In this document: positions 1,618 to 60,923 of the stretch, one piece after another
Position numbering within the stretch: the stretch's first letter is position 1
Layout: every line of letters begins with the position of its first letter
DNA from: Armatimonadota bacterium
GTDB lineage: Bacteria; Armatimonadota; UBA5829; DTLH01
DNA: 64,000 nt
Reading direction: 5' to 3'
Assembly (NCBI GenBank): GCA_029551395.1
Contig: JAKPFN010000089.1
Span: forward strand, 6,045 to 70,044
The notes under the pieces: model-generated
What the model was told of the DNA's origin: nothing
Seen by the model: only the letters and a program-made list of their open reading frames with translations
Databases searched by the model: none
Position numbers and translations under genes: made by a program

Positions 1618-2379
1618 ATGTCGTTAAAGATAGAGCACCTCACCAAGATTTACGACGATGGCACGGTTGCGCTCGATGACGTCTCCCTGGAAGTGCCTGA
1701 TGGGCAGTTTCTGGGGATTATCGGGCTTTCCGGGTCAGGTAAGAGCACGCTCATGCGGTGCATCAACAGGCTTATTGAACCTACTAGCGGCAGGATTTGG
1801 CTGGATGATGTCGAGGTTACTGCCGCTGACTCAAACGAACTTCGAAAAATCCGCCTGCACATAGGGATGATCTTCCAGCAGTTTAACCTGGTGAAGCGCG
1901 CATCCGTGCTTACAAATGTGTTAACAGGCAGGCTTGGATACCTTCCTGCTGGCACCGGGCTTTACCGCCGGTTTCCGAGCGAAGAAATCAAAAGGGCAGA
2001 GCGGAATCTCGCAAGAGTAGGTATTTCAGAGAAAGCTCTGCAAAGAGCAGATGCACTTTCTGGCGGTCAGCAGCAGCGAGTTGCAATAGCACGCGCATTG
2101 ATGCAGGAACCTGGAATCCTCCTTGCAGATGAACCTGTTGCAAGCCTTGATCCGGCTACTGCTCATTCTGTGCTCAAATACCTGGAGGAAATCAACCAAT
2201 CGGACGGCATAACAGTTATCTGCAATCTCCATTTTCTCAGCCTTACCAGAAGGTATGCTCACCGGGTAGTGGCGCTCAAGAGTGGGAAGATCGTTTTCGA
2301 TGGATCGCCGTCCGAAATCGATAACGCCAGGTTCCGTGAGATATACGGAGAGGATGCAGAGGAGGTAGAGGTGCGATGA
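1618..2379 (+). CDS. phnC: Phosphonate ABC transporter ATP-binding protein
   Basis: Walker A 'GLSGSGKST', ABC signature 'LSGGQQQRVAIARAL', Walker B 'ILLADEP'. 253 aa. Overlaps the downstream permease by 4 nt (translational coupling). Confidence 0.85.
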   Translation: MSLKIEHLTKIYDDGTVALDDVSLEVPDGQFLGIIGLSGSGKSTLMRCINRLIEPTSGRIWLDDVEVTAADSNELRKIRLHIGMIFQQFNLVKRASVLTNVLTGRLGYLPAGTGLYRRFPSEEIKRAERNLARVGISEKALQRADALSGGQQQRVAIARALMQEPGILLADEPVASLDPATAHSVLKYLEEINQSDGITVICNLHFLSLTRRYAHRVVALKSGKIVFDGSPSEIDNARFREIYGEDAEEVEVR

Positions 2380-3719
2380 CAATCATTCCGCAGCCCAAAA
2401 ACCGCCGCCGGGTGCTGATTGCATCGCTGCTTTCTATTATCCCTGGTCTTGGTCAGATATATCTAGGTGAAGTCCAGCGTGGACTGGTGCTACTGTTTGG
2501 GCTTCCGGCTCAGACTGCTATTTTTTGGGCCATAGGTGGACAATGGCTTGCTGCAACGACAGTGATAATCTGGGCATGGAACATTCTGGATGCCCGGAAG
2601 CTCGCTCGTGGAACAAAAGTGTCCCTTGCGGTTCCCATTCTCCTCTTAGTAGTCCTGAACCTTGCTGCAGGTTGGCATGTTACTAAAATCGATTTATATG
2701 AGTTAGCCACCGGAGTGCCTAACATGCGTAGAATCGGCGTTTCGCTGTTCCAACCTCAGTTTGTAGTAAGGGATGTAAGAGCATCGGCTGTTTACACTGT
2801 TCCAGGGCCGGATGTAACTAAACTCGGATACAGGTCTGAACCTGCTTCGGATGCTCCAAATATATCCGTTTCCCCTGATTCTGTTGTTAAGGGGCAGAAT
2901 GTTACAGTCTCAGGCAGGAAGTTTCCTTCAAACCAAAACGGTGTGCTTCGCATAAACGTAGGTTCAGACTGGCAGAAGATAAGCATCAAGACCGATTCCA
3001 ACGGCCGGTTCATATCTAAGTTCGTCAACCAGTCCACGGAGCCAGGGGATTATATAGTAGAAGCCATCATTGGGTTGCCGTTCAATCAGTGGCATCCATC
3101 TGAGACTCTTAAACTGACATCTAGATTGATGCTTGAGACGATCTTTCTGGCGCTTGTTGGAACAGCTATGTCTATTATAGTCACTGTCCCTTTGAGCTTT
3201 TTCGGCGCGAGAAATCTGATGAAAACAAGCCGCGCGGGAAGAATCGCTTATGCTGCTACAAGAGGATTGTTCAATGTGCTCAGGTCTATAGAGGTGCTTA
3301 TAATCGCCGTTATGCTTACGGCAGCGGTTGGGATAGGCCCATTTGCCGGAGTGCTTGCGCTTGCTATCCACGGCATAGGCGCTCTTGGCAAGCTGTATTC
3401 TGAGGCTATCGAAAGCATCGAGCAAGGCCCAATCGAAGCAATCACAGCAACAGGAGCATCAAAGCTGCAGGTCATAGCATTTGCCGTAGTTCCGCAGATT
3501 ATCCCACAGTTTATTTCATTTACGATGTACCGTTGGGATATAAATGTGAGAATGGCGACTGTCATAGGTTTGGTAGGCGGCGGCGGTATTGGTTATATTC
3601 TGATGCAGTATATCGGGCTTCTTCAGTGGAAAGAGGCTGCAACAGCAATATGGCTAATCGCAGCCGTAGTAATGTCTATGGACTACGCCAGCGCAGTAAT
3701 CCGCGAAAAGCTGCTGTAA
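2376..3719 (+). CDS. phnE: Phosphonate ABC transporter permease PhnE with an N-terminal ~250-aa extension (extra TM segments plus a predicted extracytoplasmic beta-rich domain)
   Basis: The C-terminal ~200 aa carry the PhnE signature ('EAIESIEQGPIEAITATGASKLQVIAFAVVPQIIPQFISFTMYRWDINVR'). N-terminus 'RRVLIASLLSIIPGLGQIYLGE' is TM2-like. Residues ~120-230 are hydrophilic and Ig-like ('NISVSPDSVVKGQNVTVSGRKF...'). Confidence 0.75.
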   Translation: MTIIPQPKNRRRVLIASLLSIIPGLGQIYLGEVQRGLVLLFGLPAQTAIFWAIGGQWLAATTVIIWAWNILDARKLARGTKVSLAVPILLLVVLNLAAGWHVTKIDLYELATGVPNMRRIGVSLFQPQFVVRDVRASAVYTVPGPDVTKLGYRSEPASDAPNISVSPDSVVKGQNVTVSGRKFPSNQNGVLRINVGSDWQKISIKTDSNGRFISKFVNQSTEPGDYIVEAIIGLPFNQWHPSETLKLTSRLMLETIFLALVGTAMSIIVTVPLSFFGARNLMKTSRAGRIAYAATRGLFNVLRSIEVLIIAVMLTAAVGIGPFAGVLALAIHGIGALGKLYSEAIESIEQGPIEAITATGASKLQVIAFAVVPQIIPQFISFTMYRWDINVRMATVIGLVGGGGIGYILMQYIGLLQWKEAATAIWLIAAVVMSMDYASAVIREKLL

Positions 3720-3854
3720 GCCAAGTCCAGTTGATGGGAAGGTATGAGTTGGGTTTACTCATCACTCATCACTCGTTACTTCCCCACTTTACACTCGCTT
3801 TGTTCAATTCTGTGTTACAATAGATAGGCAAAATAGCAATTAAGATACAGGCGG

Positions 3855-9199: not shown

Positions 9200-9372
9200 T
9201 CACAATAAGGTAATATTGTTTTACAAAGGGGAGTAGCACCCGCCTTATGACGGGGGGCGAAATCAACATCCTGTTCTGCGGGAAGAAGCGCAGAGCTGGT
9301 TTCGTCCACAAACTCTAAGTTTGCAAGACCTTTGTCTTAAGCCATTTGCTTACGGACAAAGGTCTTTTTACT
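9200..9372 (+). promoter_or_regulatory. yybP-ykoY (Mn2+) riboswitch candidate in the TerC leader
   Basis: Near-invariant 'AAAGGGGAGUAGC' at ~9225..9237 and a second conserved-looking segment '...GUUUGCAAGACC' at ~9318..9330. Lies directly upstream of a TerC/Alx-family gene, which is the canonical genomic context for this riboswitch class. Followed by a terminator hairpin. Confidence 0.55.
9325..9372 (+). terminator. Intrinsic terminator-like hairpin (probable riboswitch expression platform)
   Basis: 'AAGACCTTTGTC' ... 'GACAAAGGTCTT' inverted repeat followed by 'TTTTA', ~40 nt upstream of the TerC start. Confidence 0.6.
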
Positions 9373-9409: not shown

Positions 9410-10372
9410 ATGGCAAACGAAATCTGCTGCTGGGTCGGGTTCAATATTTTTGTGCTGGCAATGCTGGCATTGGACCTCGGAGTATTTCACCGGAAGTCAC
9501 ACGAGGTATCTGTCAAAGAAGCGCTGATTTGGACGGGGGTATGGGTTGGACTCGCTTTACTGTTTAATGGCGGCCTTTTCTTCATACGCGGAAAGGAAGC
9601 AGCACTTACTTTCCTGACAGGTTATCTTATAGAAAAGTCTCTCAGCGTGGACAACGTATTTGTTTTCTACCTGATATTCACCTGCTGTGTGGTCCCAAAA
9701 GTTTACCAGCACAGAGTGTTATTCTGGGGTATTCTAGGTGCGCTCGTTATGCGTGCTATCCTGATTGCTACCGGAATAACGTTGATGAACACATTCCACT
9801 GGATTATCTATGTATTCGGCGCGTTTCTCATCATTACCGGTATAAAGATGGCTTTTTCCAAGGACAAAGAGATCGACCCGGGAAAGAATCCGGCGCTAAA
9901 ACTGTTCCGGCGATTGGTACCGACTACCAAAGAGTATCATAACGAAAAGTTTTTAACTCGTATAAACGGTAAATTATTCGCCACACCACTTCTTGCGGTT
10001 TTGGTGATGATAGAAACTACCGACCTGGTATTTGCTTTGGACTCCATCCCTGCGATTCTTGCCATTTCTACGGATTCGTTCATCGTGTATACATCCAATG
10101 TCTTTGCTATACTCGGTCTTCGGGCCTTGTTCTTTGCTTTAGCCGGTGTAGTGAATAAATTCGAGTATTTGCATTACGGCTTTTCTGTCATACTGGCTTT
10201 TGTCGGTGTAAAAATGGTGAGTGCGAATGTCATAAAAATCCCCATAGGCATATCGCTTGGAGTAATATCAAGCGTGCTTGTTGTGTCTATGGCAGCTTCG
10301 GTTATAGTTGCAAAGAGGAATCAACCTGTTATTGAACTGGATGAAAAGGTAGAAGTAGAATCTATTTTATAG
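9410..10372 (+). CDS. TerC/Alx family integral membrane protein (putative Mn2+/redox-linked exporter)
   Basis: 320 aa, multi-TM, TerC signature 'GYLIEKSLSVDNVFVFYLIF' and a second repeat 'ETTDLVFALDSIPAILAIS'. Confidence 0.85.
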   Translation: MANEICCWVGFNIFVLAMLALDLGVFHRKSHEVSVKEALIWTGVWVGLALLFNGGLFFIRGKEAALTFLTGYLIEKSLSVDNVFVFYLIFTCCVVPKVYQHRVLFWGILGALVMRAILIATGITLMNTFHWIIYVFGAFLIITGIKMAFSKDKEIDPGKNPALKLFRRLVPTTKEYHNEKFLTRINGKLFATPLLAVLVMIETTDLVFALDSIPAILAISTDSFIVYTSNVFAILGLRALFFALAGVVNKFEYLHYGFSVILAFVGVKMVSANVIKIPIGISLGVISSVLVVSMAASVIVAKRNQPVIELDEKVEVESIL

Positions 10373-20308: not shown

Positions 20309-21674
20309 GCGCAGCGAACGCGGTAAGCGGTCCGATACGCCCTATATACATTACAAAAATTATTATCAACCTGCCCATAGTGCTGAGCGAGGGAGTTATA
20401 CCTGTTGTCAGCCCTACAGTGCCCCATGCTGAAATCGTTTCGAACTGTACATTCATAAAACTGGCCCGTCCGTTGGCATCAGCTACATCCACTTCTGTAA
20501 ATGTAAGTATAGTAGTTGCCGCAAGCACAAGAATCGCAGCCAGAATGGTGATTGTCAGCGCCCGGTAGACCTCTTCAGGCGGAATCCGTCTTCCAAATGC
20601 CTCCGTGTCGGTCTTACCTTTGGCAGCGCTGTATACTGCCAGCAGCATCAGCACGAAAGTCGTTGTTTTTATGCCTCCGCCGGTACCTCCAGGAGATGCT
20701 CCGATGAACATCAATATTCCCATTATAAACAGCGTAGTTGCATGTACCTGGCTGATGTTTATGGTGTTATAACCGGAAGTTCTTGCAGTTACTGACTGGA
20801 AGAACGATGCCAGAAGTTTGCCGCCTATAGGCATATTGCCTATCGTATCAGCATTGGTCCACTCGATTCCAAGTATAAGCACTGTTCCGACGACAAGCAG
20901 TGCGGCGGTAGTATACACTACGAGCTTTGCATGGGTCGTCAACCGGCGTTTTTTCTTCCTCTGTAACAATTCTTCGACTACCGGATAGCCCATACCTCCG
21001 ATGATAATTAACCCGGCGATAGTCAGGCTCACAACAGGGTCTTGGGCATAGTGAGTGATTCCTGAGAACTTGCCGTATATTACACCCATCAAATCGAATC
21101 CGGCGTTGCAGAATGCTGAAACAGCGTGGAAAATGCCGTAATAGATAGCCCGGACACCGTTTATGTTCGGGTCAAAGGCGAACCGAGTAATCAGTATCAG
21201 CGCGCCTATGGCTTCGATCATCAAAGCATAGATTGCAGTATTGCGGGTGAGCCGAATCATCCCTGACAGCCGATATTGCCCGTGTAATTCCTGCAGTTGT
21301 ATCCGCTGAGTGACTCCCAACTCTCTACCGAGAAGGATAGCCGCTGCTGTCGCTATAGTCATGTAACCCAATCCGCCCATCTGGATGAGCAGAAGTATTA
21401 CCATCTCTCCGAACATAGTAAATGCTGTCGATGTATCCACTACCACAAGCCCGGTCACGCATACGGCGCTTGTAGCTGTAAACAGGGCATCCAGCGGATG
21501 GACTCCACCGTCTACCCAGGCAATCGGCAGTGACAAAAGCAGCGTGCCGACGGCTATCAATATAGCAAAACTGAGCGCTATAATTGACGCCGGTCTAAGG
21601 GCCGATTTAGGTTTTCTATTGATGCTATCAAGTCTCACAGGTGGTATTTTACCAGAGTAACACAGTTGAGGCAA
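20247..21674 (-). CDS. trkH: TrkH/KtrB family potassium transporter
   Basis: 475 aa, about 10 TM segments, with repeated selectivity-filter-like 'GLGYMTIATA', 'NAGFDLMG', 'GGMGYPVV' and 'SGYNT' motifs characteristic of the TrkH/KtrB superfamily. Confidence 0.85.
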   Translation of the reverse strand: MPQLCYSGKIPPVRLDSINRKPKSALRPASIIALSFAILIAVGTLLLSLPIAWVDGGVHPLDALFTATSAVCVTGLVVVDTSTAFTMFGEMVILLLIQMGGLGYMTIATAAAILLGRELGVTQRIQLQELHGQYRLSGMIRLTRNTAIYALMIEAIGALILITRFAFDPNINGVRAIYYGIFHAVSAFCNAGFDLMGVIYGKFSGITHYAQDPVVSLTIAGLIIIGGMGYPVVEELLQRKKKRRLTTHAKLVVYTTAALLVVGTVLILGIEWTNADTIGNMPIGGKLLASFFQSVTARTSGYNTINISQVHATTLFIMGILMFIGASPGGTGGGIKTTTFVLMLLAVYSAAKGKTDTEAFGRRIPPEEVYRALTITILAAILVLAATTILTFTEVDVADANGRASFMNVQFETISAWGTVGLTTGITPSLSTMGRLIIIFVMYIGRIGPLTAFAALALREKPVRRRLAEEHVVIG

Positions 21675-22119
21675 ACGTTTTAATTAATGGAAGTGACGAG
21701 TTGCGAGTGATGAGTGATGAGGAGGGAAGTATCCCTGCAACAATTGCTGAATTTAATGGTTTTGGTAAAAACGAAATGGGCAGGAATTGAGCGTGATCTG
21801 AGCTTGGGATGGTGGCTTGTGAGCGTGGATTTCATTTCGTTTTGCATGTTTTTTATTGCACACCTTTCTTTTTGGCTCTTATTGTCTTCTGGGAGTCTGT
21901 TCCGGCCTGTTTTTATAGCCGTTTTCTGGAACGAACTCCCCAATTTGAGCACAAAAATGGCTGTTTGAGTTTGTTCCGACGTTTTTTTATTTATCGATTT
22001 TAGCCTGCGTTTCTGGATGTTTCAGAATTTACTGTTCATAATTATAATACAACAACTCGGCCAAAAAGTACAGAAAAAGTGGGGATATTTCTGGGATATT
22101 TATGGGAACGGATGTTTGC

Positions 22120-22250
22120 AAGAGGGTATGAGGTATGAGTGGGCTGTTACGTAGAGATTCTGCGTAATGCTGTTAGCTTGAGATATGGTAGTTGTTCGGG
22201 TTAGATTAATGCAGATTGAGGAATGCGGAATGAATATGAGGGATTGGGGA
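22120..22250 (-). repeat. Copy (reverse orientation) of the dispersed 'CTCATACCTCATACCC / ATTCCGCATTCC' intergenic repeat family
   Basis: The reverse complement of 'GGGTATGAGGTATGAGTGGGCTGTTACG' matches 'ACAGCCACTCATACCTCATACCC' at ~60571, and 'GAATGCGGAATG' matches the ATTCCGCATTC arm. Confidence 0.55.
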
Positions 22251-22300
22251 TAAGTATCCCTGAGATACCCGCCCCGGATGAATATCCGGGGCGATCAGAT
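22247..22300. repeat. Isolated copy of the palindromic 'GGATATCC..GAGATRC..CGCCCCGGATGAATATCCGGGGCGATC' repeat
   Basis: Same ~48-nt unit as the tandem array at 22926..23400. Contains an 8-bp GC-rich hairpin 'CCCCGGAT-GAAT-ATCCGGGG'. Confidence 0.7.
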
Positions 22301-22413
22301 GAAGGGATTCAACGATCTTGAAGGGAATAAATATCCGATGGTACCAATTAATGAAGCAGTAATTGATCAGACAAACTATCGGTTCTGGTCAGGATTCTTC
22401 GATCTGGTAGACA

Positions 22414-22917
22414 TTGAGAGTTGGATTCTGGGGAACATTTTCCGAAACGACGAGGCGCTATATGTTAACTCATAAGGACATTTTGCAGGCTGAGCAAATC
22501 CGCAATAGTCAAGTAAAGCGTATATATGAATCATCCGAGTTATGGTACAGTAACAAACAAAACCAGGAGGCATTGGATGAGTGGAGAAAAGCCTGCAACG
22601 ATTATCATAATACGACATTAGCGATCGATTACCTGTGGTCCGATGAGACTCGAATGAAGATCAAAAGCGGTGACAGAGAAACTATCGATGATGTTTTGCT
22701 GTTTCTTGAAGTCGATCCCTGGTTCTTTCGGTCGGGATATCTGAAAGAATGGCTGATCGATAACCTGATGCATGCACCGCTTACCGAAGAGGATAAAGTC
22801 AGGATACGACAGATTATCATCGCCGTTGCAGGTGGCCGGAACAGAAGGGAGTTCAGGCGGTTTTGTAAGCTGGCAACAAGAGTGACATCCTCCGAATTCG
22901 AAGCCACCATTGCGTAG
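22414..22917 (+). CDS. Hypothetical protein (the true start is probably the internal Met 'MLTHKD' near 22462), preceded by a small overlapping ORF (22299..22475)
   Basis: Only an ORF. No recognisable motifs. Flanked on both sides by copies of the palindromic repeat. Confidence 0.3.
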   Translation: MRVGFWGTFSETTRRYMLTHKDILQAEQIRNSQVKRIYESSELWYSNKQNQEALDEWRKACNDYHNTTLAIDYLWSDETRMKIKSGDRETIDDVLLFLEVDPWFFRSGYLKEWLIDNLMHAPLTEEDKVRIRQIIIAVAGGRNRREFRRFCKLATRVTSSEFEATIA

Positions 22918-22925
22918 TTGGCGGA

Positions 22926-23400
22926 GAAGCAAGACCCAGGCGGAAAGTTTTCATATCTGCTTCGATACCTGAAGGAGCATCCAACTCATTAAAGAGATTA
23001 GGATGGATATCCCTGAGATGTGCGCCCCGGATGAATATCCGGGCCGATCGGAGACAATTTTGTTGAATTACATTGCTTTCCACACGGGGACGGGTTGGAG
23101 GTTGGAGATTGGAGATGGATATCTCCGAGATGCCCGCCCCGGATGGATATCCGGGCCGATCGGGAAGCAAGACCCAGGCGGAAAGTTTTCATATCTGCTT
23201 CGATACCTGAAGGAGCATCCAACTCATTAAAGAGATTAGGATGGATATCCCTGAGATGTGCGCCCCGGATGGATATCCGGGCCGATCGGATTACATCGCT
23301 TTCCGCACGGAGAGGGGTTGGAGGTTGGGGATAGATATCCCCGAGATGCCCGCCCCGGATGGATATCCGGGCCGATCGGAAACCATTAGACACTGAAGCG
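22926..23400. repeat. Tandem array: a ~240-bp unit duplicated twice, with four copies of a ~48-nt palindromic repeat
   Basis: 'GAAGCAAGACCCAGGCGGAAAGTTTTCATATCTGCTTCGATACCTGAAGGAGCATCCAACTCATTAAAGAGATTAGGATGGATATCCCTGAGATGTGCGCCCCGGATG' occurs at 22926 and again at 23166. The core repeat '...GGATATCCNNGAGATGYSCGCCCCGGATGGATATCCGGGCCGATCGG' is present at ~23003, 23113, 23243 and 23340. Confidence 0.85.
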
Positions 23401-23710
23401 AAATTGCATCACACAGATGCGGTTAAACACGTTTCAACAAAGATGCCTGTGCAAATGATGTAACCAGTGTGACAACAGGCTCGTCATATTAACTGAAAGC
23501 ATCTGAATCGGGCCTGAAAGAGATGCTCATTGTGCGGGAAACCTTGATGCCGGTCCATAACTCGCAGACTCAACAGCGTCCGGTCTGCACACGATGATGG
23601 AACGTAATCACTGAATATAAACGGCCTGTTAATGGAACACTTGGCTGGCAGGCACGTCTTAGTAACCTAGAAGGGAATTACTGGCAGCCCGTGCAAAGGA
23701 GGCATCTGAA

Positions 23711-25795: not shown

Positions 25796-26002
25796 GAAAT
25801 GATTGGCGGTTTATATAAAACACCATGTAGACAAATATATAGAAGGCTTAGGCTGAGAATAAGCAGTGTTTTATCTCGTCATTCATCACTCGCAACTCTC
25901 CATCAATTTGACTCAGCATCTTTCAGGGAGTATAATCCAATCAGTACAGGGAGTTATTCTCAGGATTATTGACTTGTTCAGCCGCCATACCCTCGGCGGC
26001 TG

Positions 26003-27430
26003 TTGGTTTTAATAGCCTTCGGATGTAGAAAGTGCAGCTCTGTGATGTTACGTAAGAAATGGATTTGGATCGCCGCTATCGGACTTGTAACAGCGGCGGC
26101 TGCCTATGCTCAAGGTGAACATGCTGAACATGCTTCAGCAGAGACTATGGTCCTTCCGGTTCTTACTGCACTTGCCGTTATTCTGGTAGCAGCTAAACTT
26201 GGGGCCGATATCTTCGCCCGGATAGGCCAGCCTCCTGTGCTGGGAGAATTGGTAGTTGGAGTCGTTCTCGGCAACCTGACCTTGGTTGGGTTAAATAACT
26301 TCAACTACATCGTAGAGAACCAGATTATCGAAATATTGGCTGAGATAGGTGTAATCCTGCTGCTTTTCCAGGTTGGGCTTGAGTCCAAGGTCGATGAGAT
26401 GCTTTCAGTAGGGCTTTCTTCTCTGTTGGTGGCGACGATTGGGGTAGTTGCACCGTTCACTCTCGGCTGGGGCATAGCACTGATTTTTCTGCCGGATGCT
26501 TCTATCTATGTTCACATGTTTATCGGTGCAACGCTGTGCGCTACCAGTGTCGGGATTACCGCGCGGGTGTTCAAAGACCTTGGCAAGGTTCATCTGAAGG
26601 AAGCGAAGATAGTCCTTGGCGCTGCAGTAATAGACGATGTCCAGGGGTTGATCATCCTGGCAGTGGTCAGCGGGATCATAGTTGCAGCGAACTCAGGATT
26701 GGAGTTGTCAGCACTTGGGATTTCTATGATACTGATCAAGGCTGTTGTATTCCTTGTAGGCAGTATTATTCTTGGACAGTTCCTGGCACCTCGCGTGTTT
26801 GGTATAGCCTCCGCACTCAGGGCTAGAGGAATTCTGCTGGCTGTTTCGCTGGCATTCTGCTTCCTTATGTCATGGATTGCTGGCCGGATAGAGCTTGCCC
26901 CGATTGTCGGCGCGTTTACTGCTGGCCTCTTGCTTGAAGAGGTCCATTACAAAGATTTGTTGAGACAAGGTGAGGCTAAGCTCAACGATCTTATAGAGCC
27001 GATTGCCGCGTTTCTTGTTCCAGTGTTCTTTGTCCACATGGGGATGAAAGTCCATCTTACAAGCTTTGCAAACGTTAAAGTGCTTGGATTTGCGGCTGCA
27101 CTGACTGCTGTAGCCATCATAGGCAAGCAGTTCTGCAGCTTTGGCGTCATCGGTCGGGGAATAGACAGGCTGACAGTAGGGCTGGGGATGATACCCAGAG
27201 GAGAAGTGGGCCTTATATTTGCTGGTATTGGCACGACTATGGTTATAAATAAGCTACCGGTAGTCTCTCCTGATACTTATTCTGCGATTGTCGTTATGGT
27301 TATCGTCACTACGCTCATCACACCGCCGCTTCTTCGCTGGTCACTGGGAAGAATCAGTGATGAAGGGCATCATGAGGTGTCCAAGCTGCGGAAAATCCGC
27401 ACAGAACGCCCTCGCAAGGTCATTTACTGA
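26003..27430 (+). CDS. Cation:proton antiporter (CPA2 / Na+-H+ exchanger family)
   Basis: Multi-TM protein with the Na_H_exchanger-type motif 'GQPPVLGELVVGVVLG' and a conserved 'RGEVGLIFAGIG' region. The likely start is the internal Met 'MLRKKWIWIAAIGL' (~26045). Confidence 0.75.
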   Translation: MVLIAFGCRKCSSVMLRKKWIWIAAIGLVTAAAAYAQGEHAEHASAETMVLPVLTALAVILVAAKLGADIFARIGQPPVLGELVVGVVLGNLTLVGLNNFNYIVENQIIEILAEIGVILLLFQVGLESKVDEMLSVGLSSLLVATIGVVAPFTLGWGIALIFLPDASIYVHMFIGATLCATSVGITARVFKDLGKVHLKEAKIVLGAAVIDDVQGLIILAVVSGIIVAANSGLELSALGISMILIKAVVFLVGSIILGQFLAPRVFGIASALRARGILLAVSLAFCFLMSWIAGRIELAPIVGAFTAGLLLEEVHYKDLLRQGEAKLNDLIEPIAAFLVPVFFVHMGMKVHLTSFANVKVLGFAAALTAVAIIGKQFCSFGVIGRGIDRLTVGLGMIPRGEVGLIFAGIGTTMVINKLPVVSPDTYSAIVVMVIVTTLITPPLLRWSLGRISDEGHHEVSKLRKIRTERPRKVIY

Positions 27431-28605: not shown

Positions 28606-28966
28606 AAAAGGCCATTAAGTGCGGAACCTTTCAAGTGCGGAATCTTTCAAGTGCGGAATGCGGAATACGGAGTGCGGAATGAAGGGAGAGTTACGAGTGA
28701 TGAGGGATGAGCGGCTGTTAAGTAGCGGCTGGTTCGTAGATTTATCAGCTTGAGCTGTAGTGGTTGTTTGGGATCAAGAGATCCCTCGGTTGCTATTTCG
28801 GAGATGGATTGCAAATCCATCCCCAGTTAGACCCATCCTCATCTGGAGTTACTTGTCCGGGGGGAAATGTAAATTCCCCCGAGCTTGTTTCTCGACTCGT
28901 CACTTATCACTCGCGACTCATCACTTTCCCCTAATTCCGCACTCCGCACTCCACATTCCGCACTTG
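28606..28966. repeat. Composite intergenic element with ~90-bp imperfect terminal inverted repeats and a palindrome-rich centre
   Basis: Left arm: 4x 'AAGTGCGGAAT'-like units plus 'GTTACGAGTGATGAGGGATGAGC'. Right arm is the reverse complement: 'GCTCGTCACTTATCACTCGCGACTCATCAC...ATTCCGCACTCCGCACTCCACATTCCGCAC'. The centre carries 'GATGGATTGCAAATCCATC' and 'GGGGGAAATGTAAATTCCCCC' hairpins. Abuts the stop codon of the 28967..30472 gene. Confidence 0.8.
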
Positions 28967-30472
28967 CTACGGTCTCAGGTAGCGAAGGTAGGTGTAGGTT
29001 ATCGTGTGCTTTTGACCTGGTGGGACGTTTATCTGGCATCTCATAGAGCTTTTAGGGTTCAGGCCGTCTGAGCTTTGCGGCTGGGACTGCACTTCTGCGT
29101 TATCAGTGACTTCCGTTACCTTGCCCTGGACTGACCAGGTTACTTCTACCTCAGATGTCTCGTTTCTAAGGTTTTCCACAATCAGTTGCCCCTGGCTGAC
29201 TACAGGAATATACTCCCGGCTGGATATGACCTGAGTTGGCTGCCGCTCAAGTTCCATTTCTTTGACGGCTGTTCTGATATCTGTAGTGGTTGTCAGTTTG
29301 AGTCTGCCTTCAGCCTTGGGAGAGATATACTTCATATAATCCTGGCTTACCGGTTTACCGTTCTGGACTACCATCACAGGGCCTGTTGTAAGCGGGGCAT
29401 CCAGGGTGTTTTTGATGGCAACGTGCTGATATACCTCTTTGCCTGAGTCAACATCCCACGTGAAAACAACCCGATACGGCACAGTACCGGTCATAATAGT
29501 TGTCATGACAACATCTCCGATTGCCAGGTCCAGTTCCTGTTTGTCATAGAAGTAGAGCGACTGCAGTCCTTCCACTGGAATATTGCTGATGGGAGTTCCT
29601 GTTACGGCTGTTTCATCTTCTTTATACAGCATATCTGCAGACCTGCTGTTACTTATGGCCTGTGATGGTCCTGCTACTGATGGAGGCATTGCTGACAGTA
29701 CAGCCGCTCCTAGTGAGTGAGCAGTCAGAGGGTCCAACTGGTTCTTCAGTGCGAAATTTGGCACTCCAACTACAAAGAGAATATTGCAGTCATCTAAGTC
29801 CTCTACTGTGTTGGTTATGGTGGCTTTCAGAGTTATCCGAGCTTCCTTTGGACTGATAAGATCGAGTGTGTAGGTAGGTGTCCAGTTGATGCCCTGCTGG
29901 AGATACCCCATCCGCACGGTCACATCGTTAACAGGCTTGGAATTGTCTACCTGTATGAGCAGCGGTTGCCCCAGGATACGTGCTGTTTTGACATCTTTTA
30001 TCTGGACGACTTTGACATCCTTACCGGATTTTACTAGTATGAGATCGTTCATCACACCCAGCAGTTCGCCTTCAGTGACGACTTCAGGGGTTGTCAGGCT
30101 GATCTGCACTCCCGTATAGTCTCCAAGCGTCTGCACGAGTTCATTCGGAGACTCAAACTTGATCATGTTTTTGCTGGTAGAGCGGATAGTGTTGACAGCC
30201 GTACCGTTTTCGAGAGTGTAGAACCAGAAAGTACCTGCTGTGGCTCGTGGGATGTAGTCGGTCATGCACCAGCCATCTATCAGGTGCGCTCTACCTTCTC
30301 TGAGGAAGAAGCCGTAACCGTCTTTGAATATGGCTACAGTCTTCGTTTTTGTTTTGAACGTGTTTCCGGGCAAGGCAGCCGCAGACTTACCTTCAGCTCC
30401 GTAGCTTAATACAGCCAGTGTTGATAGAGCCAGAATTATTGCAGTACAGGTCAAAAACCAGAACTTTTTCAT
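28967..30472 (-). CDS. Secreted hypothetical protein
   Basis: 501 aa with signal peptide 'MKKFWFLTCTAIILALSTLAVLSYGAEG'. Beta-rich. No motif recognised with confidence. Confidence 0.4.
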   Translation of the reverse strand: MKKFWFLTCTAIILALSTLAVLSYGAEGKSAAALPGNTFKTKTKTVAIFKDGYGFFLREGRAHLIDGWCMTDYIPRATAGTFWFYTLENGTAVNTIRSTSKNMIKFESPNELVQTLGDYTGVQISLTTPEVVTEGELLGVMNDLILVKSGKDVKVVQIKDVKTARILGQPLLIQVDNSKPVNDVTVRMGYLQQGINWTPTYTLDLISPKEARITLKATITNTVEDLDDCNILFVVGVPNFALKNQLDPLTAHSLGAAVLSAMPPSVAGPSQAISNSRSADMLYKEDETAVTGTPISNIPVEGLQSLYFYDKQELDLAIGDVVMTTIMTGTVPYRVVFTWDVDSGKEVYQHVAIKNTLDAPLTTGPVMVVQNGKPVSQDYMKYISPKAEGRLKLTTTTDIRTAVKEMELERQPTQVISSREYIPVVSQGQLIVENLRNETSEVEVTWSVQGKVTEVTDNAEVQSQPQSSDGLNPKSSMRCQINVPPGQKHTITYTYLRYLRP

Positions 30473-40749: not shown

Positions 40750-40945
40750 TATTCATCCGCCTATCTCTCGGGAGGGATTTGCCGTCTCTCGGGAGGAATT
40801 TGCCGTCTCTCGGGAGGAATTTGCAATTCCTCCCGGACATATTGCTGAGGGATCTGTGATCCCGGATGATTAACAAAAATACCAAGGAACGGGATTGCAA
40901 ATCCCTCTTTTGCTCTTCCGGGCTAAATTGCAAATTTAGCCCGAG
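40750..40945. repeat. Left arm of a ~200-bp imperfect inverted repeat bounding the 41-47.8 kb operon
   Basis: 'CCTCCCGGACATATTGCTGAGGGATCTGTGATCCCGGATGATTAAC(A)AAAATACCAAGGAACGGGATTGCAAATCCCT...CCGGGCTAAATTGCAAATTTAGCCCGAG' is the reverse complement of 47849..~48000. Contains 3 tandem 'TCTCGGGAGG(G/A)ATTTGC' units and the palindromes 'GGGATTGCAAATCCC' and 'CCGGGCTAAATTGCAAATTTAGCCCGG'. Confidence 0.85.
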
Positions 40946-47848: not shown

Positions 47849-48060
47849 TCGGGCTAAATTTGCAAATTTAGCCCGGAATAGTGGATTAGGGATTTGCAAT
47901 CCCGTTCCTTGGTATTTTAGTTAATCATCCGGGATCACAGATCCCTCAGCAATATGTCCGGGAGGGATTGCAAATCCCTCCCGAGAGATGAATCCCTCCC
48001 GAGAGTGTCCCTCCCGAGATAAGGTTCGTCTGGGAGGCTAGGAATCCCCTCACGAGATAG
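47849..48060. repeat. Right arm of the ~200-bp inverted repeat (reverse complement of 40750..40945)
   Basis: 'CTCGGGCTAAATTTGCAAATTTAGCCCGG...GGGATTTGCAATCCCGTTCCTTGGTATTTTAGTTAATCATCCGGGATCACAGATCCCTCAGCAATATGTCCGGGAGG' plus degenerate 'CCCTCCCGAGAG' tandem units. Confidence 0.85.
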
Positions 48061-53845: not shown

Positions 53846-55228
53846 ATGACCGTAATATTCCGCACGTCAACTGGTTTTAATGATATGATACTAACAGCTA
53901 TTCTCCAGTTTGAAAGGAAGCACTGTATGGGTCGTAAGCGGGTGGATATGTTAATCATCGCAGTAGTATTTATTGCAGTACTTGCTGTCATTGGTGCAAT
54001 CTGGTTTATAAATTCGAACCGGATGCCTGAAATCAAACTGCCTACACCAGTAATGCCTTCTCCAAATGCTTATGATTACTACACCAGTGCAGGAAACCTG
54101 ATTGTAGACAGCAAGAAAATCGATGAAATAGTTTATGAGCAAACATTTTCAAGAACAAGAACTTCCCCTAAAGTCTACAGTCTGGCGGAAAAGGAAGCTT
54201 TACTTGCCAATAATGAACCGGCATTGCAGATGATGCGCGATGGCTTTGATTATGAGTGCATGGCACCAGTAAGAAGGTCTTTTGATGCTCTGTTTCCGGA
54301 ATTCCGGCATTTTCAGAACTTGGGCAGACTTTTGTATATTGAGTCGCAGATAAAGTCTGCAAAGGGAGACTATGCTGGTGCAATGGATAGCTGTCTCGAC
54401 GGCATATACTTTGGAGTCAATGCCCCTAGCGGAGGGTCACGTATTCACAGGCTCGTTGGTATATCAAACCAGAAAATTGTACGTGAAGATGCCTGGAAAC
54501 TACTGGAGCAGATGGATGCTGGAGAGTGCAGGGCAGCAGCCGGAAGATTGGAGCATATAGTCTCCAAACAACGACCATTCGCTGAAGTATTAGAAGAAGA
54601 GAAATGGTTTGGAATTGGGGCTTTTCAGGAAGCTGTGCAGAAAGAAACAATGGGAGATTTCATCAGTAGTGCTATATATGATGATAATTCGCTCAGGTCA
54701 CGCATTGTGTGGAACATTAGAGCGCTCAAAACCAGCAAGCAGAAGGTTATCCGAAACTACTCAGACTATATGGACCAATTGATCGAGAACGCAAAGAAAC
54801 CTTACGCGCTGCACCTTCCCGACCCACCAACTCCTGATGACCCGGTAAACTCTGTTCTAGCTCCAGTTCTTAACAGGGCCAGATTTTCGGATGAGTTAAA
54901 CCAGCTTCAGAATGAGTTGCTCCTTCTTAAGCTTGCGATTCGGGCTTACAAACTTGATAATGGAAGGTATCCTGCATCACTTTCTGACCTTACGCCTGAT
55001 TATATCAAGTCCATCCCCAGGGACAGGTTTGTTCTGAAGGGGCCAATCAGATACAAACAGCAAGGCAGCAGTTATGTGCTCTACAGTGTTGGCCCTGATG
55101 GAAAAGACGATGGCGGCAAGCCCATAGATAACATAAAAAGCCCGTCAAGACCTAACGCTGATGAACTAAGGTATCATGTCGAAGATAAAAGCAAAGGCGA
55201 TATAGTAGCAGGTATTAATTTAAAGTAA
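53846..55228 (+). CDS. Membrane-anchored hypothetical protein with a C-terminal T2SS GspG-like (pseudopilin globular) domain
   Basis: Likely start 'MGRKRVDMLIIAVVFIAVLAVIGAIWFI' (single N-terminal TM). C-terminal 'LAIRAYKLDNGRYPASLSDL...DRFVLKGPIRYKQQGSSYVLYSVGPDGKDDGG' resembles the GspG C-terminal consensus (nGrYP...DPWG.PY.Y...Y.L.S.G.DG..GG). Confidence 0.5.
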   Translation: MTVIFRTSTGFNDMILTAILQFERKHCMGRKRVDMLIIAVVFIAVLAVIGAIWFINSNRMPEIKLPTPVMPSPNAYDYYTSAGNLIVDSKKIDEIVYEQTFSRTRTSPKVYSLAEKEALLANNEPALQMMRDGFDYECMAPVRRSFDALFPEFRHFQNLGRLLYIESQIKSAKGDYAGAMDSCLDGIYFGVNAPSGGSRIHRLVGISNQKIVREDAWKLLEQMDAGECRAAAGRLEHIVSKQRPFAEVLEEEKWFGIGAFQEAVQKETMGDFISSAIYDDNSLRSRIVWNIRALKTSKQKVIRNYSDYMDQLIENAKKPYALHLPDPPTPDDPVNSVLAPVLNRARFSDELNQLQNELLLLKLAIRAYKLDNGRYPASLSDLTPDYIKSIPRDRFVLKGPIRYKQQGSSYVLYSVGPDGKDDGGKPIDNIKSPSRPNADELRYHVEDKSKGDIVAGINLK

Positions 55229-55229
55229 A

Positions 55230-55262
55230 AGTTACGAGTGGCGAGTGATGAGTAACGAGAAA
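55230..55262 (+). repeat. Copy of the 'GTTACGAGTG(G/A)CGAGTGATGAGTAACGAG' dispersed repeat
   Basis: 'AGTTACGAGTGGCGAGTGATGAGTAACGAG' matches copies at ~21691, 28690 and 60503, and in reverse at 3758 and 25875. Confidence 0.7.
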
Positions 55263-59159: not shown

Positions 59160-60464
59160 TTATTTCATCTCAGCAAATACTTCTTTTGCCGCTGCCAGCG
59201 TAGAGTCTGTATCATCGGCGCTGTGAGCAGTTGATACAAATGCTGCCTCAAACTGCGATGGTGCAAAGTAGAACCCCCGTTCCAGCATCCCGTTGAAAAA
59301 TGCTGCATAGCGCGATGTATTCGATTTCTTAGCTGATGCGTAGTCCGTTACATCAGAAGATGTAAAGAAAATGGTAGACATCGAACCTATCTGATTGCCA
59401 TGCGTCTGGACACCAGCAGATGCTGCTGCATCGAGCAGTCCAAGAGCCAGTCTTTTGCCTTTTTCCTCAAGCTGTTCATAGACGCCAGGTTCCTTCAGCA
59501 TTTTGAGTGTTTCAATGCCTGCTGCAACGGCAAGAGGATTGCCGGAGAGCGTTCCGGCCTGATACACAGGTCCTGACGGGGCTACAAACTCCATAATATC
59601 TTTTCTGCCGCCGTAAGCGCCCATCGGAAGCCCACCGCCTATGATTTTACCCATCGTAGTCAGGTCTGGAATAACTCCCAGCCGTTCCTGCGCTCCACCA
59701 TAAGCGAGCCTGAAGCCTGTAATGACTTCATCGAAGATAAGCACGATGCCGTTGTCATCCGCAATCTGCCGTAGAGCTTCCAAAAACCCCTGTTTCGGCA
59801 ATACTACGCCCATATTTCCTGCTACAGGCTCTACTATGATGCACGCTGTATTTTTACTATGAAGTGCAACGGCTGCACGGACTGCTTCTATGTTGTTATA
59901 GGGGACTGTTATGGTATCTATGGTCAGATTAGGAGGCACACCAGCGCTGTCCGGCATACCGAGAGTGGCAATACCTGATCCGGCTTTTGCTAAGAGGCTG
60001 TCGCTGTGACCGTGATAGCAGCCTTCGAATTTGATGATCTTATCGCGCCTGGTAAACCCTCGCGCAAGTCTGATGGCGCTCATTACGGCTTCTGTGCCGG
60101 AACTGACCAGCCTGACCATCTCGACTGACGGGACAGCATCTACAATCATTTCTGCTAGCGTCACCTCAGCGGCAGTTGCGGCTCCAAACGTGGTCCCGGT
60201 CTCTGCAGCAGCTTTGATTGCGGTGACAATCCGGGGATGAGCGTGCCCGAAGATGAGCGGCCCCCATGAACAAACATAATCAACATACGAATTGCCGTCT
60301 TCGTCGACGATCCTCGAGCCATGACCTTCTTTTATAAAAGCAGGTTGGCTGCCAACGGACTTAAACGCGCGAACCGGGCTGTTAACCCCACCCGGAATGA
60401 GTTTCTCTGCTTTCTCGAATAGTATTTTTGAGTTTGATATATCCAATTGTTTCACCAGGGGCAA
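59160..60464 (-). CDS. hemL: Glutamate-1-semialdehyde 2,1-aminomutase
   Basis: 434 aa class-III aminotransferase with 'FDEVITGFR' and 'YGGRKDIMEFVAPSGPVYQAGTLSGNPLAVAAG', typical of HemL. Confidence 0.9.
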   Translation of the reverse strand: MPLVKQLDISNSKILFEKAEKLIPGGVNSPVRAFKSVGSQPAFIKEGHGSRIVDEDGNSYVDYVCSWGPLIFGHAHPRIVTAIKAAAETGTTFGAATAAEVTLAEMIVDAVPSVEMVRLVSSGTEAVMSAIRLARGFTRRDKIIKFEGCYHGHSDSLLAKAGSGIATLGMPDSAGVPPNLTIDTITVPYNNIEAVRAAVALHSKNTACIIVEPVAGNMGVVLPKQGFLEALRQIADDNGIVLIFDEVITGFRLAYGGAQERLGVIPDLTTMGKIIGGGLPMGAYGGRKDIMEFVAPSGPVYQAGTLSGNPLAVAAGIETLKMLKEPGVYEQLEEKGKRLALGLLDAAASAGVQTHGNQIGSMSTIFFTSSDVTDYASAKKSNTSRYAAFFNGMLERGFYFAPSQFEAAFVSTAHSADDTDSTLAAAKEVFAEMK

Positions 60465-60502
60465 GTATAACAGCGCCCCGAAACCAGTGTCAAACGCAGG
60501 GA

Positions 60503-60640
60503 AGTTACGAGTGATGAGTGATGAGTAACGAGTAGGGGACTTGGCTCAAAATAACAAAGTAACGAACCGTTTCTACTTAACAGCCACTCATACCTCATAC
60601 CCAAGATTCCGCATTCCGCACTCCGAACTCCGCATTTAAA
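60503..60640 (+). repeat. Copy of the dispersed intergenic repeat element (GTTACGAGTGATGAGTGATGAGTAACGAG ... CCACTCATACCTCATACCC ... ATTCCGCATTCCGCACTCCGAACTCCGC)
   Basis: Direct sequence match to arms of the 28606..28966 element and to the reverse-oriented copy at 22120..22250. Confidence 0.75.
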
Positions 60641-60704
60641 CGCTCTAAGTGGGGTATAATAGACTCATCTTTTAAAAGCTTTTGATTCTACCTGGAGGCA
60701 TAAA

Positions 60705-60923
60705 TTGATTGATTTGGATCAGGAGTTCTTCGAAATACAGCGTGCTGTGGCGCATCTTGACCTTGGGCTGAAGGCTTATCGGGCTGCAACGCAGGATCAG
60801 ATAGATGCATCCCGGCTTCTTGAATCCATCAAAACCGAACTCGATAAGCTGGTTGAGAGCGCTCAAGCTGCACGAGATAAGGTCCATTCCAGCCTGAGCG
60901 AACCGATAAAGGCTGAAGGATAA
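60705..60923 (+). CDS. Small hypothetical helical protein (72 aa)
   Basis: ORF with a plausible RBS context ('GGAGGCATAAATTG'). Predicted all-helical. No motif. Confidence 0.3.
   Translation: MIDLDQEFFEIQRAVAHLDLGLKAYRAATQDQIDASRLLESIKTELDKLVESAQAARDKVHSSLSEPIKAEG

Follow-up and report, generated by a model that had tools for sequence, protein, structure and literature searches.

Tandem repeats of seven-nucleotide units (heptads) are the most over-represented class of long simple sequence repeats (SSRs) in many bacteria, where they are intergenic, sometimes occur as inverted pairs and have no known function (PMC4679880; PMC4692102). Here we analyze heptad arrays in a 64,000-nucleotide stretch of an Armatimonadota bacterium (GTDB lineage Bacteria; Armatimonadota; UBA5829; DTLH01; assembly GCA_029551395.1, contig JAKPFN010000089.1, positions 6,045 to 70,044 of the forward strand; hereafter the window), in which tandem 5'-GAGTNNN-3' units occur alone and as the arms of composite elements. 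From sequence comparison we favor, with moderate confidence, the view that they constitute one family of small, non-coding, imperfectly palindromic elements, in which arrays of the short tandemly repeated repetitive (STRR) or long SSR type are organized as units resembling repetitive extragenic palindromic (REP) sequences and miniature inverted-repeat transposable elements (MITEs). The analyses below establish the anatomy, enrichment, intergenic location, common descent and strain stability of these elements, and detected no RNA-family, coding or transposase signal in them.

As the arrays in the window consist of tandem GAGTNNN heptads, the family falls within the known bacterial class of heptanucleotide tandem repeats, which includes the STRRs of heterocystous cyanobacteria and other heptanucleotide long SSRs (Mrazek et al. 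2007; PMC4679880, PMC4692102). Like the arrays described here, these are short, head-to-tail and intergenic, are patchily distributed across the phylogeny and lack a known function, and the class has many dispersed arrays of related units per genome. The arrays in the window differ in their Armatimonadota host, in their heptad (GAGTNNN) and in their placement within composite palindromes that have a unique core; furthermore, STRRs serve for strain fingerprinting, whereas copy number in the arrays here does not vary from strain to strain. The TAACTGA repeats of marine Beggiatoaceae and some Cyanobacteria and Bacteroidetes (MacGregor 2015, PMC4679880) are also similar, as they form intergenic arrays of 2-6 units with related heptads mixed in, contain stop codons in the unit, occur as the same heptad in distant phyla with no evident transfer mechanism and resemble our units in sequence (TAAC-TGA compared with TAAC-GAG). 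In 'Maribeggiatoa', most TAACTGA arrays lie a few nucleotides upstream of start codons in one orientation, whereas none of the arrays here do so and several are 5' of -35 boxes or past stop codons. The GGGAATC and GGGGAYT heptamers of Xanthomonas and Nostoc (Rehm et al. 2015, PMC4692102) are likewise intergenic, have conserved and variable unit positions and include some inverted stem-loop pairs. Those repeats are G-rich, form G-quadruplexes and vary in length between related species, in contrast to the arrays in the window, which lack G-tracts and are invariant among strains. Elhai et al. are said to have described, in 2008, MITE-like elements of Nostoc punctiforme that contain tandem heptameric repeats and inserted small dispersed repeats (SDR). 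These reportedly share with the present elements the nesting of heptad arrays within inverted-repeat elements and the insertion of small hairpins (three in copy A, below); they differ in phylum and sequences, and insertion polymorphism is said to provide evidence for their mobility in Nostoc.

Two further kinds of system invite comparison. Correia-type elements are miniature palindromic sequences that are short, extragenic and dispersed. REP and REPIN sequences (PMC3116915) are, like the elements in the window, short extragenic imperfect palindromes that are dispersed and located by promoters or past stop codons. Unlike REP, REPIN or Correia elements, those described here have arms made of tandem heptads, no REP-associated tyrosine transposase (RAYT) or other transposase was seen in the window, and there is no target-site duplication. 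The ribbon-helix-helix (RHH) protein omega (ParB) of plasmid pSM19035 binds 7-10 contiguous WATCACW heptads overlapping promoters (PMC9499535); its arrays resemble ours in consisting of at least four contiguous 7-bp repeats, direct or inverted, at promoters, and in the likeness of our CATCACT to the WATCACW core. Whereas pSM19035 has three plasmid sites beside the gene for the binding protein, in the window the sites are chromosomal and numerous, half of the copies are away from promoters and no RHH gene is close by. This likeness is a resemblance in possible mode of action, not evidence of membership.

A preliminary description of the window had listed two recurrent motifs, GTTACGAGTGATGAG and ATTCCGCAYTCC, as a dispersed intergenic family. 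We found 10 matches to GTTACGAGTGATGAG (at most 2 mismatches), where 0.14 were expected from shuffled sequence, at 3758/3765(-), 21700/21707(+), 25882(-), 28690(+), 55231/55238(+) and 60504/60511(+). For ATTCCGCAYTCC (at most 1 mismatch) there were 8 matches where 0.63 were expected, at 4312(-), 22220(-), 28655/28669(-), 28934/28941(+) and 60606/60613(+); the one at 4312(-) is within a gene and looks like a chance match. The recurrence and the positions reported earlier are thus confirmed. Inspection of the units revealed that the two motifs are a single theme, tandem GAGTNNN heptads read on opposite strands: arrays matching GTTACGAGTGATGAG (hereafter inner arrays) are composed of GAGTGAT, GAGTAAC, GAGTTAC and GAGTTGC, and the outer arrays of GAGTGCG and GAATGCG, the reverse complement of ATTCCGCAYTCC.

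Several independent scans identified the same sequences. A profile built from seven units of ~35 nt recovered exactly those seven in the 64 kb (E 7.7e-10 to 9.2e-07), with no other significant match across the window. Tandem Repeats Finder reported period-7 repeats at 3757, 21705, 22125, 28652, 28936, 60509, 60587 and 60606, and an autocorrelation scan found period 7 to be the sole clearly enriched period (5-6 arrays, compared with 0-0.2 in shuffled sequence and no more than 3 for each other period). Across the aligned units, 13 columns are invariant, and the G-rich flank (GGGAAGT) and the order of variants (GGGAAGT-TRCGAGT-GATGAGT) are shared. The shared variant order and flank, together with a core shared by three loci, argue for copying from a common source and not for independent local slippage. 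No further copy was present in 14 kb of flanking sequence from same-species contigs, which together with the window bring the part of this genome examined to 78 kb.

All seven units lie outside genes. On a gene map based on open reading frames (ORFs), the non-coding share of the window is 12.5%, and the probability that six independent loci would all be non-coding is ~4e-6. Extending this to all heptad arrays, 11 of 11 (the 7 units plus 4 others in the 64 kb) are non-coding, save for a 2-nt overlap with one stop codon, in agreement with the earlier statement that all copies are between genes. Three placements directly follow stop codons: 3736 (17 nt past), 28966 (0 nt) and 55227 (overlapping the stop). 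The remaining units are in spacers 5' of genes, mostly between divergent pairs (21688, 25869 and copy B), and both orientations relative to flanking genes were observed.

Three of the loci are composite elements (copies A, B and C; Table 1) that share a non-repetitive core of ~75-110 nt (GGCTGTTAAGTAG..GGTTCGT..TTGAGC..) with a mean column identity of 64%. In its full form, the element consists of an outer (GARTGCG)n array, a short G-rich linker, an inner (GAGT-GAT/AAC/TAC)n array, the ~75-110-nt core, an inverted inner array and an inverted outer array. Copy A (28608-28966) is a complete nested palindrome with ~65-nt inverted arms, and its predicted RNA fold is far more stable than those of shuffled sequences (z = -11.2). 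The terminal inverted repeats are incomplete in copies B and C. Copy B (60499-60636), the site first flagged, is in inverted orientation and lacks one outer arm; its outer array reads ATTCCGC ATTCCGC ACTCCGA ACTCCGC, and a 44-nt unique stretch separates its inner array from CCACTCATACCTCATACCC. The right end of copy A is the base before the stop codon (28967-28969) of gene 28967-30472(-), and the 3' part of its core contains three small hairpins (28772-28787, 28800-28824 and 28858-28881) of a kind known from a second repeat family in the window, described below. The earlier assignment to a REP/MITE-like family therefore stands as regards dispersal, intergenic location, inverted arms, shared core and shared variant order; the heptad nature of the arrays and the unity of the two motifs had been missed. 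CRISPR arrays were considered and rejected, since the units are contiguous 7-mers without spacers.

Table 1. Heptad arrays, composite elements and an adjoining promoter-like site, in window coordinates.
Feature	Position	Strand	Description
Mini-palindrome	3736..3786	-	GGGAAG-GTATGAG..loop..(ACTCATC)2-ACTCGTTA-CTTCCC
Solo unit	21688..21722	+	AAGTGAC GAGTTGC GAGTGAT GAGTGAT
Copy C, rearranged	22124..22260	+	(GGTATGA)x2, core, 1.5 TGCGGAA units direct, then GGGGATAAGTATCCC hairpin
Solo unit	25869..25905	-	CTCTCC end 2-3 nt before TTGACT-17-TATAAT at 25908-25936(+)
Copy A, left outer arm	28608..28681	+	16-mer AAGTGCGGAATCTTTC x2.7, then (TGCGGAA) x4.3
Copy A, left inner heptad array	28682..28715	+	GAGTTAC GAGTGAT GAGGGAT GAGCGGC
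Copy A, core	28716..28893	+	Homology to copies B and C over initial ~75 nt
Copy A, right inner heptad array, inverted	28894..28933	-	Profile match
Copy A, right outer array	28934..28966	+	(TCCGCAC/ATTCCGC) x4.1
Solo unit	55227..55259	+	Covers final two bases of stop codon of 53846-55228(+)
hemL promoter-like site	60464..60493	-	TTGACA-18-TATACT (11/12, TG); directly adjoins copy B
Copy B, inner heptad array	60499..60533	+	GGGAAGT TACGAGT GATGAGT GATGAGT AACGAGT; profile E 7.7e-10
Copy B, non-tandem core	60540..60583	-	GGCTGTTAAGTAG..GGTTCGT..TTGAGCC; common to copies A and C
Copy B, degenerate inverted partner array CCACTCATACCTCATACCC	60584..60602	+	Imperfect pairing with 60499-60533
Copy B, outer heptad array	60604..60636	+	(ATTCCGC) x4.4; reverse complement of GAGTGCG/GAATGCG units

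To what extent these elements act as RNA was assessed from predicted folds and RNA-family searches. Copy A would make a very stable RNA hairpin, and the mini-palindrome at 3736-3786, which begins 17 nt past the stop codon of 2376-3719(+), folds better than shuffled sequence (z = -2.35). In contrast, the whole of copy B folds no better than shuffled sequences on either strand (z -0.73 and -0.59), its inner hairpin (60499-60533 with 60584-60602) is weak (z -2.48 on the - strand) and most solo units fold no better than shuffles; those at 25869 and 55227 (z -0.58 for the latter) lack palindromic structure. Searches of Rfam, at gathering thresholds and at E<=1, returned nothing at the repeats, and the window contains no tRNA or tmRNA genes. 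In view of these results, and of the inconsistent orientation and position of the units, we found no support for the conserved regulatory RNA that the preliminary description had raised as a possibility, nor for a small RNA (sRNA) in the gene-free stretch 21730-22120 (RNA fold z 0.07 and -1.57).

An RNA-level role could also take other forms, with the arrays serving as GAG-N4 sites for a multimeric RNA-binding protein or supplying stop codons in all frames. Candidate models for such a protein are a HutP- or TRAP-like regulator, or the post-transcriptional regulator proposed for the Beggiatoaceae TAACTGA repeats. HutP recognizes NAG triplets at 7-nt spacing. The GAGTGAT and GAGTAAC heptads place TGA or TAA every 7 nt and so create stops in three frames within 21 nt, and the unit at 55227 starts inside the stop codon of the upstream gene in the corresponding orientation; a translational role has been argued for TAACTGA heptads just upstream of start codons (MacGregor 2015, PMC4679880). 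However, the GARTGCG arrays contain no stop codons, the orientation of the units relative to flanking genes is mixed, and several units are upstream of predicted promoters and so may not be transcribed with the gene. Given these points and the folding and Rfam results, we consider an RNA-level role of any of these kinds, including a structured regulatory RNA or sRNA, to be very unlikely.

We also asked if the elements could be Rho-independent terminators or stabilizers of mRNA 3' ends, as proposed for some REP sequences. Three loci begin 0-17 nt past a stop codon (3736, 28966 and 55227), an analogous element in another Armatimonadota genome (below) begins 4 nt past the stop codon of an orthologous gene, and both copy A and the 3736 mini-palindrome form hairpins. 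Terminator prediction found no unit with a hairpin and U-tract, contrary to the suggestion that copies might coincide with transcription termination sites; within copy A, the one predicted terminator is a small internal hairpin on the + strand, against the direction of the flanking genes. As 4 of the 7 loci are, furthermore, between divergent genes or upstream of genes, and as the post-stop unit at 55227 is unstructured, we assign this explanation a very low probability.

Comparison with other assemblies allowed us to assess the stability of the arrays. Same-species contigs from other samples (n=8; 99.6-99.9% identity, with one at 98.8%) cover five of the seven loci. The sole indel near a unit is 1 nt, in a C-run flank at 3782. 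That identical sequences are found in these independent assemblies indicates that the elements are not assembly artefacts, and the constant heptad number among strains indicates that the arrays are not hypervariable. These observations bear on the proposal that each array is an independent microsatellite produced by local slippage, possibly a hypermutable contingency locus that switches neighboring genes, and not a member of a dispersed family. Tandem repeats of seven-nucleotide units are known to undergo slippage readily in bacteria (Mrazek 2007, summarised in PMC4679880) and heptad sequences differ between related lineages, as this proposal would predict. The arrays are short (4-5 units), though, and they do not change in length in eight same-species assemblies, including the one at 98.8%; the copies also share variant order, flank and, at three loci, the core. 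An origin as unrelated microsatellites thus appears very improbable indeed.

The distribution among relatives is narrower for the core than for the heptads. A metagenome scan with a 19-mer of the core returned only the same species, plus two chance matches; the core has three diverged copies in the window, and no homologues outside the species were found. Period-7 arrays were not found in the sampled loci (8-21 kb around the same genes) of five to six genus- or family-level relatives (HemL 81-84%, MreB 88-90% identity). An analogous composite element with different heptads is present in Armatimonadota genome E14_maxbin.151 (JAUSEB010000191.1, 7504-7742), where (GAGTTAG/GAATTAG)n is followed by a core hairpin and then by (CTAAACT)n(CTCAACC)n; it begins 4 nt past the stop codon of the orthologue of 28967-30472 (60% identity product), and several more heptad arrays are found elsewhere in that genome. 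Alignment of this element with copy A revealed a similar architecture and no convincing sequence homology, and the element folds weakly (z -1.6). Either this element is old and its sequence has since been replaced, or a separate insertion converged on a similar site; two other relatives lack it.

GAGTNNN arrays are also present outside the Armatimonadota. We scanned 185,579 species genomes for the 16-mer GTWRCGAGTGATGAGT and matched at least 118 loci. About half of the matches listed are attributable to chance, so the results describe a distribution and are not a census. Among these 118 loci, 59 have a further in-phase GAGT (~2% expected by chance) and 32 have at least two. Periodic loci among the matches listed are from Cyanobacteriota, Nitrospinota, Bacteroidota, Acidobacteriota, Chloroflexota, Fibrobacterota, Nitrospirota, Planctomycetota, Desulfobacterota and Gammaproteobacteria, so that GAGTNNN arrays occur in at least 10 other phyla; GAGTGAT, GAGTAAC, GAGTGAC, GAGTAAT and GAGTACT are the commonest heptads in this listed set, which was selected by the query heptads. 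Within the same set, some metagenome-assembled genomes (MAGs) are matched on several contigs (Anaerolineae ACE_CHL13, Nitrospinota J063 and Pyrinomonadaceae SMAG_U3181), and an Anabaena contig has a GAGTGAT array beside the classic TTGGTCA repeat. In 834 kb of listed loci from other phyla, period 7 is dominant (141 arrays, compared with at most 43 for any other period) and its arrays are depleted from long ORFs (42%, compared with 86% for random positions); GTCCAAA, CAGCTGT and cyanobacterial TTGGTCA heptads accompany the GAGT type, often as inverted pairs that make hairpins. A scan of viral contigs gave approximately the chance result, with periodic context in 5 of 56 matches. The earlier claim of a lineage-specific family is accordingly correct for the core and consistent with the missing arrays in the sampled loci of relatives, and too narrow for the GAGTNNN arrays themselves.

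One contig in this set contains an array of another kind. In Candidatus Viridilinea halotolerans (RSAS01000526.1, 2559-2615), (CCCCTGA)n runs straight into (CCCTAAA)n, which on the opposite strand reads as TTTAGGG, the plant-type telomere heptamer, and the same Chloroflexota MAG contig bears GAGTGAC arrays. This telomere-like array may be a contaminant or another heptad variant.

Taken together, the data are consistent with the following account of the favored family of palindromic elements. The arms would have grown by replication slippage of 7-nt units; as the shared unit order, flank and core suggest, whole units would then have spread by a copy-and-paste or recombinational route, probably using an enzyme encoded outside the window. 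Copies would persist only in harmless spots, directly past stop codons or directly 5' of -35 boxes, and their influence on the host, if any, is probably structural, exerted through hairpins, cruciforms or promoter spacing: copy A, which is complete, could give rise to a long hairpin or cruciform in the space that separates two co-directional genes, and copy B could act as filler between two predicted divergent promoters.

A number of observations weigh against this account. Pfam scans of 48 window ORFs identified no transposase or RAYT, so that no dispersal machinery was seen, a BLAST comparison of copies A and B with plasmids gave no match, and there is no target-site duplication at the ends of copy A (flanks ..GGCCATT / GCTACGG.., read from the sequence). 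We found no empty site, as the same-species contigs all carry the elements and the more distant relatives are non-syntenic at the insertion sites (hemL/MreB relatives at 81-93% protein identity; 28967-30472 relatives at 56-60%). Heptad number is unchanged across the eight same-species contigs, though slippage-prone repeats are expected to vary, and the account rests on 78 kb of genome. Lastly, when the solo units are read in the ACTCATC direction, 3 of 5 are followed within 16 nt by a sigma-70-like site matching at least 9 of 12 consensus positions, and the base rate of such adjacency in intergenic DNA of the window is 2.3%, which gives P ~1e-4. This close association is a hint of function, which would be unexpected under pure neutrality.

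The sites concerned, which are consensus matches and not mapped promoters, begin 2-14 nt past the units: the unit at 25869 is followed by TTGACT-17-TATAAT (11/12), that at 60499 by TTGACA-18-TATACT (11/12, TG) and that at 21688 by TTGCCT-17-TAAAAT (9/12, TG). By eye, the unit at 3754-3786 is also followed by TTTACA and an extended -10. The window has six promoter-like sites matching at least 11 of 12 positions, two of which (25908 and 60493) abut a unit. In copy B, the GGGAAG end of the inner array and the hemL promoter-like site, at its -35 box, are 5 nt apart, and the outer array ends 18 nt before a perfect TATAAT (60655-60660) located upstream of a 72-aa ORF (60705-60923). With the hemL site on one side and this TATAAT on the other, copy B exactly fills the space between two divergent promoter-like sites.

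From this proximity, one might propose that the arrays are DNA sites acting in cis, where a small repressor or centromere-binding protein would bind cooperatively to contiguous 7-bp repeats at promoters, for which omega is a precedent. The significance of the solo-unit association, the two of six 11/12 sites that abut units and the position of the copy B outer array are all as such a proposal would predict. In addition, the main unit in the omega frame, CATCACT, fits the ATCAC core of WATCACW, and the omega system needs at least 4 contiguous heptads, direct or inverted (PMC9499535), where the arrays here have 4-5. However, the ATCAC match was noticed after the fact, the promoter calls are consensus matches only, and the site at 21674 may be inside the TrkH ORF. 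Half of the copies are away from promoters, past stop codons or within a composite element, and adjacency to -35 boxes would also be expected in a compact genome whose insertion sites are under purifying selection. The genes beside the arrays (hemL and those for a Na+/H+ exchanger, a NUDIX hydrolase and TrkH) have no functional relation to one another, and no gene for an RHH or other small DNA-binding protein is beside any array; neither the ORFs adjoining arrays nor the Pfam scans of 48 window ORFs yielded an RHH domain. Furthermore, promoter association was not seen for GAGT arrays in other phyla (3 vs 1 of 82). We therefore consider a role as protein-binding DNA sites to be unlikely, though its probability is appreciable.

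A broader form of this idea is that GAGTNNN arrays are one widespread element class, spanning at least 11 phyla, with a conserved GAGT-R-A-Y (reverse complement RTYACTC) and made or maintained by a shared mechanism, to which we assign a low probability. A candidate for the mechanism would be a conserved small protein that binds contiguous 7-bp heptads cooperatively, as omega does on WATCACW. If true, such a heptad-binding mechanism would account for the arrays directly against -35 boxes in this genome.

Two of the promoter-like sites have features of their own. The start codon for HemL (431 aa) begins at 60455(-) and the hemL site ends at 60464, which suggests, from the predicted promoter position, that the hemL mRNA is leaderless or nearly so. 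At 25908-26010(+), a GC-rich hairpin and U-tract (25979-26002 plus TTGGTTTT) follow TTGACT-17-TATAAT after ~45 nt, just where the Na+/H+ exchanger ORF is listed to start; this region could be a short leader, an attenuator or a small transcript. Since the Pfam match of the exchanger starts only at residue 64, its true start may be downstream.

The gene content of the window is that of an ordinary housekeeping region (phosphonate ABC transporter, TerC, TrkAH, DAHP synthase, AddAB, murA-mreB, hemL and RF-1). For MreB, HemL and the product of 28967-30472, which has a weak DUF4139 match, the best named matches are to Armatimonadota MAGs; that of MreB is 100% identical. At E<=1, the Rfam search also returned a sub-threshold match to the Mn2+ (yybP-ykoY) riboswitch at 9216-9324(+) (24.8 bits compared with a gathering threshold of 45; E 0.008), 86 nt upstream of the TerC-family gene 9410-10372. 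As TerC genes are a usual context of the yybP-ykoY riboswitch, this match may be a divergent, real riboswitch.

The window contains other repeats as well. A second dispersed family consists of hairpins of the form CGGG-N6-ATT(T)GCAAAT-N6-CCCG at 28800, 40811, 40919, 47850 and 47959, one of which (28800-28824) is inside copy A; TGCA-centred palindromes number eight in the window, compared with 0.5 expected. Inverted copies of a four-hairpin module of ~140 nt are present at 40800-40945 and 47850-47985, flanked by a 21-mer tandem repeat (TCTCTCGGGAGGAATTTGCCG x2.9, 40764-40824) and an 18-mer tandem repeat (47973-48019). A third repeat is a ~50-nt double-hairpin unit, GGGGATAAGTATCCCTGAGATRCCCGCCCCGGATGRATATCCGGGSCGATCRG, in five copies (22246-22298, 23003-23053, 23117-23163, 23240-23290 and 23329-23380); it occurs within a ~240-bp tandem duplication (22925-23400), beside a heptad array, (GGTTGGA)n, at 23092-23118. 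Repeats make up most of the 2-kb stretch 21675-23710, whose 167-aa ORF (22414-22917) has no Pfam match.

For annotation, our results indicate that the elements should be treated as repeats and not as sRNA or riboswitch candidates. After 35 years, the origin and function of heptanucleotide repeats are still unexplained, and the window extends the phenomenon to the Armatimonadota. What is new here is that seemingly different motifs proved to be GAGTNNN variants built into nested palindromes with a unique core, that their stability among strains argues against simple slippage-driven hypervariability, and that several arrays abut strong promoter-like sites. As the same heptads form arrays in many phyla, and rarely in viral contigs, a systematic cross-phylum census of these repeats would be worthwhile.

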